Assembly (NCBI GenBank): GCA_965197725.1
Contig: CBDANQ010000019.1
Location: 1 to 20,198 of the forward strand
Source of the DNA: Longimicrobiales bacterium
Lineage (GTDB): Bacteria; Gemmatimonadota; Gemmatimonadetes; Longimicrobiales; Gaopeijiaceae
Direction of reading: 5' to 3'
DNA length: 20,198 nucleotides
Part shown: positions 1 to 6,273 of the stretch, piece after piece
How positions within the stretch are numbered: position 1 is the first letter of the stretch
Layout of the letters: each line of letters starts with the position of its first letter
The notes under the pieces: model-generated
Database searches by the model: none
Told to the model about the DNA's origin: nothing
What the model saw: the letters and a program-made list of their open reading frames with translations, nothing else
Program-made: the position numbers and the translations under genes

Positions 1-203
1 ACAGCACCCACTCGGGCGTAAGACAGAAGACCCGCAGGGTGACCAACTGGAAGAACGGAGCGATGGCCTTGCGCTGGGCTGCGGCCTCGTTCGTGGAAAC
101 CGAGAAGAGCTACCGGAGGATCATCGGCTACGACCAGCTCTGGATGCTCAGGGCCCACCTCGACGACCATGAACCGGTTGCCGAAATGAGAAAGGCAGGC
201 TAA
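1..203 (+). CDS. IS256-family transposase, C-terminal fragment (5' truncated by window edge)
   Basis: Reads STHSGVRQKTRRVTNWKNGAMALRW...EMRKAG* (TAA 201-203), near-identical to the C-terminus of ORF 3284..4573. Confidence 0.92.
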   Translation, partial: STHSGVRQKTRRVTNWKNGAMALRWAAASFVETEKSYRRIIGYDQLWMLRAHLDDHEPVAEMRKAG

Positions 204-253
204 CAAGGAGACTCTCCGGAGCCACCACCTTCAACTGTCAGCGGGACACCATC
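1..253 (+). mobile_element. IS256-family insertion sequence, right part only (left part outside window)
   Basis: 1..253 aligns to 4371..4623 with 6 mismatches. Identity ends exactly after the right IR ...TTCAACTGTCAGCGGGACACCATC. Confidence 0.93.
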
Positions 254-292
254 CTTCGACCGGGTCGGAGCACGGTTCGGACTCCTCAGTCC

Positions 293-312
293 GGGTAACA
301 GTTTGGGTAACA
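293..312. repeat. Tandem GGGTAACA x2 at 12-bp period (putative integrase arm-type site) on the 3' side of tRNA-Ser
   Basis: GGGTAACA-GTTT-GGGTAACA, 61 bp from the tRNA 3' end. The functional role is inferred. Confidence 0.4.
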
Positions 313-373
313 CCCCAGTTGGTCCGCTGGCAACGGAAGCGACACCCTAGCCGTAACTCCTTGTCCTACAACA

Positions 374-457
374 CGGAGGGGGCGGGATTCGAACCCGCGT
401 GGGCTTGCGCCCGCCGGTTTTCAAGACCAGTGCATTGAACCGCTCTGCCACCCCTCC
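374..457 (-). tRNA. tRNA-Ser (anticodon UGA), long variable arm, CCA not encoded
   Basis: Reverse complement GGAGGGG-TG-GCAGAGCGGTTCAATGC-A-CTGGT-CTTGAAA-ACCGG-CGGGCGCAAGCCCAC-GCGGG-TTCGAAT-CCCGC-CCCCTCC-G folds into a complete cloverleaf with a G discriminator. Confidence 0.96.
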
Positions 458-524
458 AACTCGTTCAAACGTAAGGGCTAATGCCCTTTTCCTACACTTG
501 CCACCTCACTCTCAAGCAGGGGGG

Positions 525-547
525 TGTCCCCCAGAGTGTCCCCTGAC
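525..547. repeat. TGTCCCC x2 at 12-bp period; direct repeat of 2971..2993 (putative arm-type integrase site)
   Basis: TGTCCCCCAGAGTGTCCCCTGAC vs TGTCCCCCAAACTGTCCCCTGAC, 21/23 identical. Confidence 0.65.
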
Positions 548-715
548 GATTCCTTCGCGTCATCGCCCACGGTACTGCTGCACACCCGCACTTCGGTAGG
601 CCAACAGATCGTCGTGGCTTAGAACGCCGTCACCAGTTTTGGGGTTAGACGCTCAACCTACCACCGACGATCACCACGCCTTCCACGAAGACGCGCAGCC
701 AGGGGATCTGGGCCT

Positions 716-1645
716 TCAATTGGGCACCAGACGCTTCAGTTCCTCGAAGAAGTTCTGGACGAGGATGTACTCGACCTCAGCCTGGGTATCACTTCTGTAC
801 GTGCGGACCATCAGGAACCGCTCGCCGTCTGAACTGACGTCGTAGGAGTTGGCGCCCGATACCATCAGATATCCCGCCGGTACGGTGAACAGCATCTCCT
901 GCGCCACCACCAGACCAGAGGCCGGATCGAACTGGGCGGCCACGAACCCACGGTCCGGGCTCATGAAGAATAGCTCACGTCCACTCTTCGCCCAGACCGG
1001 CACGATGCCTCCATCAGTCGAAACGCGCACTCTGGTCGAGTCCACGTTGGGAAACGGACGAACGAATACCTCGGCGCGGCCCGTTTCGGTGGAACTGTAA
1101 GCAAGCCAGAGACCATTCGGCGAGATTGCAGTTCCACCCTCACGGAACGCCGGTGACGCCACGAGGGGTACGGCGACGCTGTCCACGCCCGGACGGAAAC
1201 CCAGGATATCGCGCTCAGCCCTCTCCGCGCTTCTGTCTGCTGAACGGAGCACCAGCGACTCGCCATCCGGACTCCAAGACCCCTGGGCGAAGCTGCGGTC
1301 GTCATCGAGTACGAGTACTGGCTCTCCCGTCCCATCTGCGCGCATGGACCACACGCTCAAGTGTTCGTCGCGGCGGGGACCCGAAAAATACGTCACGCTT
1401 TGCCCATCGAGCGTCCAGAATGGACTGTACTCGGGGTCGGGGTCGTCCGAGAACGTGATCCTCTCCTCCGGTCCGTCGGGGAGGTGCTTGATCCGCACGT
1501 CGGTGTTGCCATCGACAGTGCTGGCGAACGCGACCCGCGTCTCGTCCGGCGAGAGCCTCCAACCGGCGCTTTCGCCCGGCGTGAAGGTGTACCCCGGATC
1601 AACAGGCGTCGCCTGGCCAGAGCGTGTGACCCACACGAACTCCAA
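716..1645 (-). pseudogene. TolB-like (PD40) beta-propeller C-terminal region, N-terminally truncated
   Basis: Repeats LSPDETRVAF, PFWTLDGQSVTY, WSPDGESLV, ISPNGLWLAYSSTETGRAEVFVRPFP, PVWAKSGRELFF and YDVSSDGERFLM, ending in the VQNFFEELKRLVP tail typical of kinase/cyclase-TolB proteins. It begins mid-domain (EFVWVTRSG) at a TTG inside the upstream ORF. Confidence 0.75.
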
Positions 1646-1919
1646 GACGTAACGGGACCACGGGTTCCTGGCGGAGACCGTGCTGAACTTCTACGGCGGC
1701 CCGTACTGCCTCAACGACACTCGGGAACATGGTGAGACTTCCATCGCCCAAGTACTGAAGCAGATCACCGCCGTGCGCCGAAACAGCCGCCTCCAACACC
1801 TGCCGGTGGCGTCGTCGGACGATGCGGGCCGCTTTCTCGTCCCGCTGCATCAGTGCCGTGTAGCCCACAACATCGGTGAACATCACGGCGAGAAGACGAC
1901 GCTCCTTTGAGCTAGTCAC
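1599..1919 (-). pseudogene. Class III adenylate/guanylate cyclase domain, N-terminal half only
   Basis: RRLLAVMFTDVVGYTALM and QYLGDGSLTMFPSVVEAVRAAVEVQ carry both metal-binding Asp residues. Similarity stops at PLRLG, before the rest of the domain. SD-like GGGAGG lies upstream of the GTG. Confidence 0.8.
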
Positions 1920-2152
1920 ATCGCCCTCCCGCTCTCTCCTAACTCACGCTCGATGCGGTAGCGGCCCTGTAGAGGGCTGCGTTCAGGCGGGTGACGGGGT
2001 CGGGCATGGACCCCAAGATGCGGCTCAGTTCAGCAGAGCGCGAGATCCTACAGCAACACCAACCGCAGCCCCAGCGCGAACAGCGCGCTCACGATGATCA
2101 CGCTGACGAAGCCCATCGAGCGGAAGCAATGGACCGACCTCGCCGCCTATGA

Positions 2153-2545
2153 TCAACACCGAGATTGCGAGTCCGACCATCTTTTTGATCCCAGTAGACG
2201 CCCCAAGAAAAGGGAGAGAACCGGAAGGAGAACCGGGACGATCGCCCACACCGTCTTCCCCACCTGCAGGCGTCTCCATTCAACTGCTGTGATGTCCGCA
2301 AGCGCGATCCTGACAGTCCCAGTGCGGAGATTACTGAAGATCCGGGCAGTAAGGGAATCAGACTCGACCTGTGGGTTTCTAAGCTCCATCCGCTCGCCGT
2401 CAGCTTTGAAGATCCTGATGTGGTCGGGCGCTGCCTCCTCGATTAGCTGTCGAGGGCTGACCGTGACAGGTTGCCACGAGTAGCATCCAGCGAGGTGCAG
2501 CACCAACAGCAACAGGGCCAATGGGCGATAGCGGCGCAGTTCCAT
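2153..2545 (-). CDS. Hypothetical lipoprotein with a C-terminal hydrophobic segment
   Basis: MELRRYRPLALLLLVLHLAGC gives a basic n-region, h-region and LAGC lipobox. SD AGAGGGA lies upstream of the ATG. TVWAIVPVLLPVLSLFLG is TM-like. Confidence 0.7.
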   Translation of the reverse strand: MELRRYRPLALLLLVLHLAGCYSWQPVTVSPRQLIEEAAPDHIRIFKADGERMELRNPQVESDSLTARIFSNLRTGTVRIALADITAVEWRRLQVGKTVWAIVPVLLPVLSLFLGRLLGSKRWSDSQSRC

Positions 2546-2916
2546 GGCGGTCCCTCTTGAACGAGTCGTGACGACTCACACACCGTGGTTCGATCGAGTT
2601 TGTGAGCACATACGTATCGTGACGTAGGCGTGCGCGGCCCTGCAGCGGTGCGCGGCCAATACTTCGTAACGGGCGGAGTAGAGTCTGCCGGAGGATTGCT
2701 CGGTCATCTCGCAGGATGTGCGCGAGAGGAGGAGGGGGCAAGATCGGCTTGGAAGCCCCGCTGTGGTCTCACATGATCGGGCGGGGTCTTGCGATAGACC
2801 GAATGCAGGACTCCCGCCATAACTCCCGCTGTTCGATGCCGTTTCCCCGCTGTTGAGTGCCGGCAGATCCCGGCATCGCGAATCGGCAAGTGCGGCAGAT
2901 CGTGCAGCCCGGTGAG

Positions 2917-2941
2917 ACGGTGTCGGTTACGGTGTCGGTTA
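2917..2941. repeat. Perfect 12-bp tandem repeat ACGGTGTCGGTT x2
   Basis: ACGGTGTCGGTT-ACGGTGTCGGTT-A read directly from the sequence. Confidence 0.7.
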
Positions 2942-2970
2942 GTCCTGCAAGCTGCCTGAACCGAAAGGGA

Positions 2971-2993
2971 TGTCCCCCAAACTGTCCCCTGAC
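2971..2993. repeat. Second copy of the TGTCCCC 12-bp-period arm-like repeat
   Basis: 21/23 identity with 525..547, same orientation, 114 bp from the att core at 3108. Confidence 0.65.
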
Positions 2994-3107
2994 CAGCGGG
3001 ATTGAGTCACACTCAGCGGGACTCACGAAGAAAGGCCTATCCCAGGAAGCCAACTGGGACGGGCTCTTTCGTACCTAGGGGGACTCAGCCGGAAAGCTCA
3101 GATAGAG

Positions 3108-3146
3108 TTTCAAGGCCGGTGCATTGCACCGCTCTGCCACCCCTCC
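3108..3146 (-). pseudogene. 5' half of tRNA-Ser(UGA) (att-site remnant)
   Basis: Reverse complement GGAGGGGTGGCAGAGCGGTGCAATGCACCGGCCTTGAAA followed by unrelated sequence, with no T-arm or 3' acceptor strand. Confidence 0.85.
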
Positions 3147-3215
3147 AGACGGATAACCACCCTCGGGAAGCTGTCCCAACCGTAGTTGAAGGTCCCTGAT
3201 AGGGGAGAAAGAAAA

Positions 3216-3282
3216 GTGGTGGCTCCGGGGGTCCCGGGCCGATAGGCTCGGGTAGGCAAAAACCCCAACACGGAGCCACCAC
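3216..3282 (+). promoter_or_regulatory. 12-bp inverted repeat covering the transposase ribosome-binding site
   Basis: GTGGTGGCTCCG (3216..3227) is the perfect complement of CGGAGCCACCAC (3271..3282), which contains GGAG and ends 1 nt before the ATG. Confidence 0.6.
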
Positions 3283-3283
3283 G

Positions 3284-4573
3284 ATGAAGAGAACGTACGA
3301 GGTAAGGGATCGGGCGGACAAGCGCGCGATCAGGGAGTTCCTGAAGCGGGAGGGGCAGTTTCTGCTTCCGATGCTTGAGCTCGTGGAGCAGACGGAGGTC
3401 GCGATCGACGAAGTCATCCAGGTGATGGGACGAGCGACGATCGAAGCGGTGCTGGAGATGAGCGCCGAGGGTGTGGCAGGCGTGAAGCAGGCAGGTCGGT
3501 CACGAGCGGAAGACGACACGGTGTGGTATGGCCGGCAGGGTGGTGTGGTTTACCTGTTGGACCGGAAGGTGCGTGTGGAGCGGCCACGGCTCAGGCGCCG
3601 GGGCGCCGGGGAGGGTGGCGAGGTCGAGGTGCCGGCGTACGCAGCGATGCGGAGACCGGGCGCCGTGGCGGATCGGATGCTCGAGGTCCTGATGGCGGGG
3701 GTGAGCACGCGGAAGTACGGCCGTGTGATCGGTGAGATGGCCGACACGGTCGGGGTGAGCAAGTCGGCGGTGAGCCGTGAGACGGTCGAGGCCTCGGAGC
3801 GCGTGCTGAAGGAGCTGATGGAGCGCCGGCTGGATGCGTGGGACCTCCTGGTGATCTACCTGGACGGGATCCAGATGGGCTCGCACCACGTGCTTGCTGC
3901 GGTAGGCGTGGACTCAGACGGAAAGAAGCACGTGCTGGGCGTGAGGGAAGGAGCGAGTGAGAACGCCGAGGTGACCAGCGCGCTCCTAGAGGATCTGGTC
4001 GAGCGCGGCCTGGACCCGGGCAGGCGGCGGCTGTTCGTGATCGATGGCTCGAAAGCGCTCAGGAAGGCGATCGAGAAGGTGTTCGGCCAACGTCACCCCA
4101 TCCAGCGCTGCCGCAACCACAAGCTCCGCAACGTGCTGGGTCATCTGCCGAAGGATCAGCATCCTCAGGTGAAGGCGGCGTTCCGGGCGGCGATGAAGCT
4201 GGACGCGAAGCAGGGCGAGCAGAAGCTCGAGCAGCTCGCCCGATGGCTCGAGCGCGACCACCCCTCGGCCGCAGCCAGCCTGCGCGAAGGCCTCAGCGAG
4301 ATGTTCACCATAAACCGGCTCGGCCTCCCACCGCGGCTGAGGAAGTGCCTGGGCTCGACCAACCTGATCGACAGCACCCACTCGGGCGTAAGACGGAAGA
4401 CCCGCAGGGTGACTAACTGGAAGAACGGAGCGATGGCCTTGCGCTGGGCTGCGGCCTCGTTCGTGGAAACCGAGAAGAGCTACCGGAGGATCATCGGCTA
4501 CGACCAGCTCTGGATGCTCAGGGCCCACCTCGACGACCATGAACCGGTTGCCGAAATGAGAAAGACAGGCTAA
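3284..4573 (+). CDS. IS256 (Mutator-like) family transposase
   Basis: 429 aa with GVSTR, VSKSAVSR, IYLDG, AVGVDSDGKKHVLG, FVIDGSKAL, QRCRNHK (CxxH) and STNLIDS motifs. Confidence 0.95.
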   Translation: MKRTYEVRDRADKRAIREFLKREGQFLLPMLELVEQTEVAIDEVIQVMGRATIEAVLEMSAEGVAGVKQAGRSRAEDDTVWYGRQGGVVYLLDRKVRVERPRLRRRGAGEGGEVEVPAYAAMRRPGAVADRMLEVLMAGVSTRKYGRVIGEMADTVGVSKSAVSRETVEASERVLKELMERRLDAWDLLVIYLDGIQMGSHHVLAAVGVDSDGKKHVLGVREGASENAEVTSALLEDLVERGLDPGRRRLFVIDGSKALRKAIEKVFGQRHPIQRCRNHKLRNVLGHLPKDQHPQVKAAFRAAMKLDAKQGEQKLEQLARWLERDHPSAAASLREGLSEMFTINRLGLPPRLRKCLGSTNLIDSTHSGVRRKTRRVTNWKNGAMALRWAAASFVETEKSYRRIIGYDQLWMLRAHLDDHEPVAEMRKTG

Positions 4574-4636
4574 CCAAGAGACTCTCCGGCGCCACCACCT
4601 TCAACTGTCAGCGGGACACCATCACCCTCGGGCAGA

Positions 4637-4665
4637 AAGATGCTTCAGCCCCTGCCCCGCTTCAA
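4637..4665 (-). promoter_or_regulatory. Putative sigma70-type promoter of the ancestral tRNA-Ser locus
   Basis: Minus strand TTGAAG-N17-CATCTT. With the IS removed it would lie about 25 bp upstream of the tRNA 5' fragment at 3146. Confidence 0.4.
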
Positions 4666-4686: not shown

Positions 4687-6273
4687 CTAGTGCCGGAACA
4701 GCCTTCGGCCGGTGAACACCATCGCCATGCCGTGCTCGTTCGCGGCGGCGATGACTTCTTCGTCTCGCTTGGAGCCGCCCGGCTGGATGACGGCCTTTAC
4801 GCCGGCTTCGGCTGCTGCGTCGACTCCGTCTCGGAAGGGGAAGAAGGCGTCTGAGGCGAGGACCGCACCGGTCAGGTCGAGGCTGGCGTCACTGGCCTTT
4901 CGCACTGCGATCTTGGACGAGTCCACGCGGCTCATCTGTCCGGCGCCTATGCCTAGCACGGCTCCGTCCTTGGCGAGCAGGATCGCGTTCGACTTCACGC
5001 CGAAAATCGCGGCCCAGGCGAAGCGCAGGTCGTCCATCTCCTCCTCGGTCGGCTGCCTCTCGGTGGCGACGGTCCAGGTCTCGTCGTCGATCCCGTAGAA
5101 GGGGAGCACGGGCGGGGTCTGGGCGAGCATGCCACCGTAGACGGTGCGCAGCATGCGCGCTTCGGGGATTCGGCCCCAGCCTGCGAGGAAGTTGTCGTCG
5201 CCCCCTCCCCCGATCTCGGGGAAGGTCAGTAGGCGGACGTTCTTCTTCTCGGTGAGCCTGGCCATGGCGGCCTGTGAGTAGCCGGGCGCCACGATGCACT
5301 CGATGAAGAGCGTCGACATGAGCTCAGCGGTCGCCTCGTCGAGGAGGCCGTTCATTGAGATCACGGAACCGAAGGCGCTGGTGGGATCGGTCGCGAGCGC
5401 TTTCTCATAGGCGTCGGACAGCGAGTCCGAGATGCCGAGGCCACACGGGGTGGTGTGCTTGACGATGCAGACGGCGGCCCGTGGTGAATGAGCGAACGGC
5501 GACAGCGACAGGAGAGCTCCGTCGAGATCCAGCAGATTGTTGTACGAGAGCTCATTGCCGTGGTGCTGTTTGAGCGCGGATAACCCGGCGGGCTCGTCGG
5601 GGCCGTAAAACGCTGCTTCCTGATCCGGATTCTCACCGTATCGGAGCGTCTTCAGACGCCGCAGTGAGCCGATCAGCCGTTCGGGAAGTGGCGTCCAGTC
5701 CGCCGATCGCTCCATATAGGCGGCCACGGCGTCGTCGTATATGCTGACGTGACGGAAGACCTTGGCCGCGAGTCGGCGGCGCAGCTGTGTCTGCCCCTCC
5801 CCGTCGATCCCGGCGATCACGACCTCGTAGTCGGCCGGGTCCACGACGACCCATACGTCCCGGTGTGACTTGGCGGCCGCACGGATCATGGTCGACCCGC
5901 CAATATCGACTTTCCCCATCGCGCCATCCATCGGGACATTGCCGGCGGCGATCGTCGCCTGGAACGGGTAGAGGTTGACGGCCACCAGATCGATGGGCCC
6001 GTACCCGCGTTCTTCCAACGCGGCCATGTCGTCGGCGCGGTCCCGGCGAGCTAGCAATGGTGCGTGAATCGCGGGATGGAGCGTCTTCACCCGACCATCC
6101 ATCATCTCGGGATGCTGGGTGACCTCAGAGACGCTCGTCACCTCGAGGCCGGCGTCCCGGAGGATCCGGGCGGTACCACCGGTCGAGAGCAGCTCCCAAC
6201 CTCGCTCCAAGAGTGCCTCCCCGAGCTCCACGATGCCGGTCTTGTCGGACACGCTGAGTAGCGCACGTTTCAT
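4687..6273 (-). CDS. purH: Bifunctional AICAR formyltransferase / IMP cyclohydrolase
   Basis: [68 protein letters not shown] and terminal RLFRH. Confidence 0.97.

Follow-up and report, generated by a model that had tools for sequence, protein, structure and literature searches.

A tRNA-Ser island remnant of reverse polarity in a Longimicrobiales genome, and integrase relatives of opposite polarity

The window analysed here, the first 20,198 bases of contig C19 (CBDANQ010000019.1, assembly GCA_965197725.1) of a Longimicrobiales bacterium (G000, the source genome; assembly of 3.0 Mb, 89% complete, 61 contigs), contains a tRNA-Ser(TGA) gene whose 5' half recurs at a spacing of 2689 bp, beside purH. 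We read positions 373-3147 as what is left, without its integrase, of a tyrosine-integrase island that had the 5' half of tRNA-Ser in its attP where a 3' half is usual, and we place the probability of this reading at roughly 0.88.

The split tRNA-Ser gene and the island remnant

ARAGORN called a single tRNA in the window, Ser(TGA), at 373-458 on the minus strand (Rfam RF00005 at 374-457), and this is the sole Ser gene with a TGA anticodon among the 50 tRNAs called in the assembly. The initial annotation held that a 40-bp direct repeat is the 5' half of this gene and ends at the anticodon loop, and the measurements agree: the copies at 419-458 and 3108-3147 are identical at 37 of 40 nucleotides (blastn E 2e-9 versus the genome), they correspond to nucleotides 1-40 of the tRNA, and the last base of the repeat is the final base of the 7-nt loop CTTGAAA. 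The tRNA cloverleaf was not reproduced by RNA folding, which was uninformative here. The copy at 419-458, inside the working gene, would be the attR of the reverse-polarity element, and the minus-strand orphan copy at 3108-3147, with the anticodon loop and presumed crossover core at 3108-3114, would be its attL and the original host 5' half.

The orphan half lies downstream of purH (4687-6273, minus strand; PF01808 and PF02142). Between the two sits an insertion sequence (IS) of the IS256 family at 3167-4623 on the plus strand (PF00872; transposase 3284-4573), bordered by an 8-bp target duplication, ACCCTCGG, at 3159-3166 and 4624-4631. Deleting it in silico leaves 74 nt from the purH stop to the orphan half, close to the 75 bp or so claimed previously, and as also claimed this spacer contains TTGAAG-N17-CATCTT (4637-4665, minus strand), the putative ancestral host promoter of tRNA-Ser. 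The motif scores 16.2 bits, with none of 200 shuffles as high, on a matrix made from the best 60% of 57 tRNA upstream regions (consensus TTGAnn-N17-TAnCTT), a matrix that is self-trained on the relatives' tRNA-Ser upstream regions and favours the host motif. The same motif precedes the tRNA or its 5' half in the relatives G001, G002, G003 and G004. The IS256 insertion point has the host −10 box on one side and the orphan half on the other, a position that fits a dead orphan copy. About 18 full-length copies of this IS256 element at 98-100% identity are present in the assembly, plus more of an 81%-identical relative; copy number and identity indicate a recent expansion.

The initial annotation predicted that relatives would show an empty site, reading purH, short spacer, intact tRNA-Ser, as well as longer elements that share these ends and carry an integrase, and both were found. 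We searched 40 relatives with the tRNA and fetched DNA from 18, with purH inside the fetched DNA of 13. Three of the 18 have the empty site, the intact tRNA following purH after 62 nt (G003), 67 nt (G012) or 86 nt (G018). In six further relatives the tRNA stands after purH on the same strand at a distance of 0.26-3.9 kb, with no 5' half among the matches listed, and in two purH is on the opposite strand to the tRNA. The filled sites are in G001 and G002, members of the same genus as G000, where a 5' half occupies the same place as the window's orphan, about 75 nt after purH, and the whole gene lies 5616 bp (G001) or 7079 bp (G002) beyond. The ends of these elements match those in the window: identity at the tRNA end is 90-92% across some 220 nt, and at the purH end it is 76% (G001) and 95% (G002). 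The cargo is different in each of the three. Both carry PF00589 integrases (E 1.4e-17) that are damaged at the start and that stop just before the whole tRNA, on the same strand. DNA past the intact tRNA in G002 matches the host flank of G004 (90% over 135 nt including the tRNA), and since this flank is common to both genomes we conclude, as had been proposed, that the 5' half came with the element and the 3' half is the host's own.

Among 401 genomes of the phylum, G000 and G001 alone matched a 182-nt DNA probe taken from the end of the element. In another genus, a diverged 5'-type element end lies upstream of tRNA-Ser at locus L013 (G006), with TAGGTT instead of the TACGTT described below.

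Two of the three repeat mismatches in G000 are in the orphan half, one of them at the loop-closing pair, and the third is in the working gene. The 5'-half copies of G001 and of G002 are identical at 40 of 40 positions and match the sequence of the empty site in G003; the three G000 mismatches are thus private to this genome. It had been argued that the orphan's C-G pair with the 3' half, where the intact gene has U-G, marks the ancestral locus. The U-G pair of the intact gene and the C-A mismatch of the orphan are both real, but being private to G000 they hold no evidence on polarity and reflect decay after integration.

Little of the island is left between its ends. On the tRNA side, 478-590 (minus strand) encodes the C-terminal tail of the element's tyrosine integrase, about 35 codons and a stop (last 35 codons at 481-585), with 86% amino-acid identity to the integrase tails of G385 and L053 (hidden Markov model, HMM, E 2e-8). 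The DNA match to G001, G385 and L053 stops at 590, and no PF00589 match was found on the window contig. Nor did our queries, taking the best four to six candidates per search in an assembly that is 89% complete, find an intact integrase of the family in G000 or a helper that might act in trans. On the purH side, the distal att arm of the 5'-type element covers 2971-3107 (minus strand; 95% over 177 nt to G002), ending in a GGGGACA-N5-GGGGACA pair at 2971-2989; its proximal counterpart is at 525-543, within the integrase tail. Attachment sites of the lambda type are the basis on which we read such repeat pairs as probable arm-type integrase sites.

The decayed cargo (591-2970) has a GC content of 0.617, compared with 0.662 in core genes. 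It includes a fragment of a PD40 beta-propeller gene at 716-1645 and two open reading frames (ORFs) without a Pfam match (1599-1919 and 2153-2545). Dispersed repeats at 640-722, 1921-2010 and 2040-2130 have 17, 17 and 15 genome matches, respectively. These three repeats border cargo genes, often near each other, and one abuts the att arm of the G003 island; possibly they are cassette boundaries at which islands swap cargo. The beta-propeller segment at 659-1643 is 98% identical to G000:C61:106145-107129, inside a 5'-type island at tRNA-Gln, which suggests, from this likeness, recent cargo exchange between the tRNA-Ser and tRNA-Gln islands.

We propose that a tyrosine-integrase element recombined across the 7-nt anticodon loop of tRNA-Ser, with a crossover that would lie inside the loop. 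The host promoter and host 5' half would have stayed beside purH, and the gene would have been rebuilt at a distance of 2.7 kb with the element's own 5' half, directly after the integrase stop codon, to be transcribed from a presumed promoter within the integrase tail. Later the integrase would have lost all but its tail, the orphan half would have mutated, and IS256 would have split the orphan from the host promoter. Excision would now yield a damaged tRNA, its loop-closing pair mismatched and its promoter cut off by an IS, so the remnant is probably locked in place. Since the assembly showed no intact integrase of the family, a 2689-bp circle is unlikely to be excised.

Integrases of opposite polarity at one anticodon loop

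We examined 31 loci with relatives of this integrase. At seven of them the integrase lies just upstream of tRNA-Ser and is co-directional with it (L031, L032, L051, L052, L053, L056 and L068; the tRNA at L052 is the CGA type), and at ten distinct family loci, counted without a duplicate and the distant L045, it points toward the 3' end of a tRNA on the opposite strand (Ser TGA, Ser CGA and one Gln). No tRNA was called near the integrase at the remaining loci, and reading their flanks gave a reverse-strand tRNA 3' end in L071, L091, L092, L094, L099 and L100. Displaced fragments confirm the polarity on both sides, as 5' fragments in L031 and L032 and as 3' fragments in L034 and L080. The catalytic domain is whole, with the stop before the tRNA, in G001, G002, G385, L051, L052 and L053. 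Eleven of 12 named records carrying a related integrase are Gemmatimonadota, and no relative was found in viral contigs.

Sister integrases of opposite polarity share 50-61% protein identity; one close pair with opposite polarity at the same loop is 52% identical. The six long co-directional integrases form one shallow clade (SH-aLRT, the approximate likelihood-ratio test, 100), whose sister is a protein of 3' geometry (support 86 in one quick tree and 92 in another). These trees leave out duplicates and the short pieces L034, L055, L056, L080, L094, L099 and L100, and the second also omits L054, L088, L092 and L093; the outgroups are long branches, and the rooting of the trees is unreliable. 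The 5' form looks derived.

When read in the direction of the integrase, the att layout is the same in both polarities. A proximal GGnnACA-N5-GGnnACA pair inside the integrase tail lies 101-102 bp from the loop centre in all eight 5' ends, and 109-114 bp from it in the six of 11 3'-type ends that match the pattern. The distal pair starts 122 bp from the loop centre in three 5' elements (G000, G001 and G002) and in the 3'-type element of G003; no match was found in the remaining three 3' ends, one of them truncated where its contig stops. Over the 40 nt after the loop, the arms of the window or G002 are identical to those of C25 (a G000 contig described below) or G003 at 23-24 positions (0 of 20,000 shuffles as high). 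What the two polarities share of the tRNA is the stem and loop alone, with repeat identity ending at the loop end, and the loop reads CTTGAAA in one form and TTTCAAG in the other with element geometry unchanged. By this comparison the family appears to have switched polarity by inverting its target.

Several observations weigh against this interpretation. A displaced 5' half accompanies only two of the seven co-directional loci, the other five being on short contigs. The distal arm of G001 is less alike (20-21 of 40; p about 0.001), and likeness to L080 or L036 is not significant (12-15 of 40). A tree uniting all 3'-type integrases is not rejected (approximately unbiased, AU, test p 0.36), so either polarity may have come first.

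Three further observations concern these loci. L052:1017-1100 has a member of the 5' clade upstream of tRNA-Ser(CGA); its 5' half differs, the spacing of 102 bp and TACGTT are unchanged, and it represents a target switch within that clade. Displaced or extra tRNA 3' ends at L031:619-745 and in the flanks of L071, L094 and L100 are broken within the T-arm by a palindromic insert of about 70-100 bp. Finally, the motif ACAACGACTTAC is conserved after the tRNA in 3'-type elements (window 355-372; L069, L074 and L086). We take this motif to resemble the consensus of integration host factor (IHF) sites.

Origin of the 3' half and transcription of the working gene

The DNA on the working gene's other side also appears to belong to an element. 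Positions 254-372 (plus strand) match the ends of a 3'-type island in G003 (24 of 24, and 82% over 49 nt) and would be the proximal end of an ordinary 3'-type sister element, which is cut at the contig start by the end of a second IS256 copy (1-253, plus strand; 98% to 4371-4623). A repeat pair of the 3' type, GGGTAACA-N4-GGGTAACA, lies at 293-312 with a spacing of 109 bp, inside the range of 3'-type ends, and 255-350 is a probable 3'-type integrase tail directed at the tRNA 3' end. The missing distal end may be on contig C25: a copy of the tRNA 3' half, identical at 55 of 55 positions, lies at G000:C25:108-162, and the first part of this contig, 3' half included, matches the distal end of the G003 3'-type island at 85% identity across 161 nt. 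Ends of the 3' type also follow the tRNA immediately in L051 and L056, and in G001 5' and 3' fragments are on one contig, though the 3' island there is unrelated. Two points tell against this second element: its integrase tail is not significant as protein (HMM E 0.11), and the link from the window contig to C25 spans an assembly gap. The working tRNA had been described as a chimera of element and host. Its 5' half is indeed the element's, whereas its 3' half in G000 probably came from the second, ordinary element and not from the host; if 254-372 and C25 belong to a single island as its opposite ends, the gene may owe both of its halves to elements.

The genome uses UCA codons (five core genes contain 11) and no other TGA-anticodon Ser gene was called, so the working gene should be expressed from something upstream; for 2.6 kb, upstream is element DNA throughout. 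A candidate element-borne promoter, TGTAGG-N17-TACGTT, lies at 468-496 on the minus strand, 10 nt before the tRNA. It is the best-ranked site in six of nine element upstream regions, and TACGTT (TAGGTT in G006) stands 10-12 nt before the tRNA in eight of the nine. The case is weakened by its score of 8.3 bits, which 13 of 200 shuffles equal (range 9-13) and which compares with 16.2 for the host promoter and a training median of 9.4, by the failure of this site to rank best in L053, L056 and L013, and by a generic sigma-70 promoter scan of 254-800 that found none. These moderate matches to DNA patterns are only suggestive of an element-borne promoter in the integrase tail.

A different view of the same island is that its tRNA is transcribed by read-through, from the integrase promoter in intact elements or from cargo DNA in the remnant, and we consider this unlikely but worth keeping in view. 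The integrase is encoded on the strand of the tRNA and stops some 20-25 bp ahead of it, tRNAs at pTN3-type elements are said to be expressed from the integrase promoter (PMC8371274), the candidate −35 box is poor, and the interval 254-800 holds no terminator-like site. Yet the hexamer so regularly placed before the tRNA fits both the TAnnTT −10 box and the spacing of host tRNA promoters, and the window has lost the integrase start in a genome where no alternative gene for this anticodon was called.

Besides the whole gene, G000 has both a 5' and a 3' orphan half, which could also be explained by a single short-core element that carried a whole tRNA-Ser and split the host gene, leaving the 5' half by purH and the 3' half on C25, as in the tRNA-dependent lysogeny described for mycobacteriophages (PMC10865867). 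We regard this as very improbable. G002 has a 5'-half island with no 3' half among the matches listed and host-type flank past the whole gene, G003 has a 3'-half island alone, and these single-sided islands show that the two halves belong to separable elements; moreover, the element of each half has its own integrase end facing the whole gene. Least credible of all is that the repeat arose by IS-mediated or homologous duplication or by misassembly rather than by site-specific integration. IS256 copies stand on either side of the region and the assembly is broken into 61 contigs, but the same two junctions are present in the integrase-bearing loci of G001 and G002, whose fetched DNA has no IS256 match. 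A misassembly at 3108, raised earlier as a possible refutation, is also opposed by contigs from two sequencing runs that bridge this position without differences (X1, 2822-3190; X2, 2845-3167); both runs are from one sample, probably the source, and hence are not independent. Joints from the tRNA to the purH side in the runs (457>4689 and 458>4712) were not used, their short side being under 30 letters at 88% likeness and possibly from other organisms. We therefore retain the reading of 373-3147 as the remnant of an island that brought in the 5' half of tRNA-Ser.

Other tRNA sites and comparison with known systems

The tRNA-Ser locus is not alone in its genome. Three more 5' halves in G000 lie upstream of whole genes on the same strand and end at or just past the loop (locus labels L113-L116): a 22.5-kb island at tRNA-Gln(TTG) (G000:C61:86337-108920), with a co-directional integrase beside the tRNA that has one internal stop, and a host-type promoter before the orphan; a 17-kb island at tRNA-Arg(CCT) (G000:C60:54770-71941); and a 6.4-kb island at tRNA-Asn(GTT) (G000:C53:38311-44753). 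The genome also has about seven tRNA 3' fragments and one ambiguous Ile fragment. The latter, a 5' fragment (44 of 44) 10 kb upstream of its gene (G000:C59:142757-152988, L121), was rejected as a 5'-type island: the whole gene keeps a host-type promoter and it is the fragment that has element-like repeats upstream. At tRNA-Val(TAC) a co-directional integrase lies directly upstream (G000:C21:29476-30153, L117), and in G002 a Val 5' half is found 71 kb upstream of the whole gene (G002:C1:24470-95450), with at least five Val 3' halves elsewhere. BLASTP gave little if any similarity between the Gln- and Val-site integrases, or between either of them and the Ser enzymes (best E 6e-4).

Counting with five tRNA probes in 41 genomes, we found at least one 5' half in each of the five genomes of the genus, with totals of at least nine 5' halves and at least about 13 3' halves, several of the halves being on separate contigs. 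In Islander, 159 islands have a 5' tDNA fragment and 3760 a 3' fragment, of 3919 in total (PMC4383910). The 5' share in the genus is far above 159/3919, with the qualification that our counting rules differ from Islander's and that kin are not independent. Apart from these islands, a 17-tRNA array (G000:C47:3956-6763, L069 and L080) has near-identical order in three genomes, in two of which 3'-type sister integrases target the final gene of the array, Ser(CGA).

The wider picture to which these results could belong, and which we hold at about even odds, is that one bacterial integrase family switched polarity by turning round the tRNA half that it carries, with its att arms retained, so that the two polarities take up one anticodon loop from opposite sides; that the only tRNA-Ser(UGA) gene found in G000, with its promoter, is the product of two elements whose remnants can no longer be lost; and that reverse polarity is common in the genus and arose independently in at least three unrelated integrases (those at the Ser, Gln and Val sites). 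Reverse-polarity tRNA integration has been treated as an exception, at about 4% of the Islander islands. Integrases that are 52% identical and opposite in polarity, with att arms that can be aligned, make orientation switching directly testable. With two sites on a single tRNA, islands can stack to either side of it, and control of an apparently single-copy tRNA passes to mobile DNA, which could fix remnants that have lost their integrase. Island finders that demand an integrase, or that scan only downstream of tRNAs, would miss such remnants.

Reverse polarity as such is already catalogued, and the window is another case of a rare class; what is new here are the matched sister elements of opposite polarity, the probable two-sided capture and the apparent enrichment in the genus. 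We found no paper on a polarity switch within a family or on two-sided tRNA capture in a search that stopped short of two key papers of 2002, and the Islander and TIGER tables may already list such islands. The covered parts of PMC4383910 do not discuss either subject, and those of PMC9897764, PMC1635311, PMC13626063 and the tycheposon preprint (10.1101/2020.12.28.424599) have nothing on polarity switching. In our searches of the literature on element-supplied promoters and on islands of this phylum, no description of this integrase family was found.

According to a review, recombinant tRNAs in bacteria keep their own promoter with very few exceptions and 5' polarity is "seldomly encountered in bacteria" (PMC8371274). 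A bacterial precedent for recombination with the target gene's 5' part is also cited, its target reportedly being a protein-coding gene. Archaeal cases are known as well: CalSub-E1 is inserted on the 5' side of a tRNA-Ser (PMC6563490), and pTN3-like integrases use the tRNA 5' half, the tRNA being expressed from the integrase promoter (PMC8371274, PMC5495485). The window element resembles the latter in that its attB is the tRNA 5' half. In pTN3, however, attP is inside the integrase gene, which is split on integration, whereas in the bacterial family described here the integrase ends about 20 bp before the tRNA half and stays whole, with repeat pairs at both ends; because its integrase is not split, the window element is not of the pTN3 type. 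It differs from tRNA-dependent lysogeny in sharing 40-43 nt, with a whole gene at the junction and host flank beyond it in G002. With the ordinary 3'-fragment islands (site A), those of the sister integrases included, it has in common the loop, an integrase end facing the att site, the repeat-pair motif and the 122-bp distal spacing; it differs from them in that the tRNA faces the opposite way, that they keep the host promoter, and that their proximal spacing is 109-114 bp and not 101-102 bp. The closest likeness is to the 5'-fragment class of Islander (PMC4383910): a whole tRNA with a 5' fragment upstream on the same replicon, in the same orientation, that ends at the anticodon loop. The window has this arrangement, its length of 2689 bp falls within the 2-200 kb allowed, its fragment begins at the gene end (positions 1-40), and the empty sites of G003, G012 and G018 restore one intact tRNA. 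Islander also asks for a PF00589 ORF, which G001 and G002 have between the same ends and the window lacks; the window is a decayed member of this 5' class, kept out of it by the integrase filter alone.

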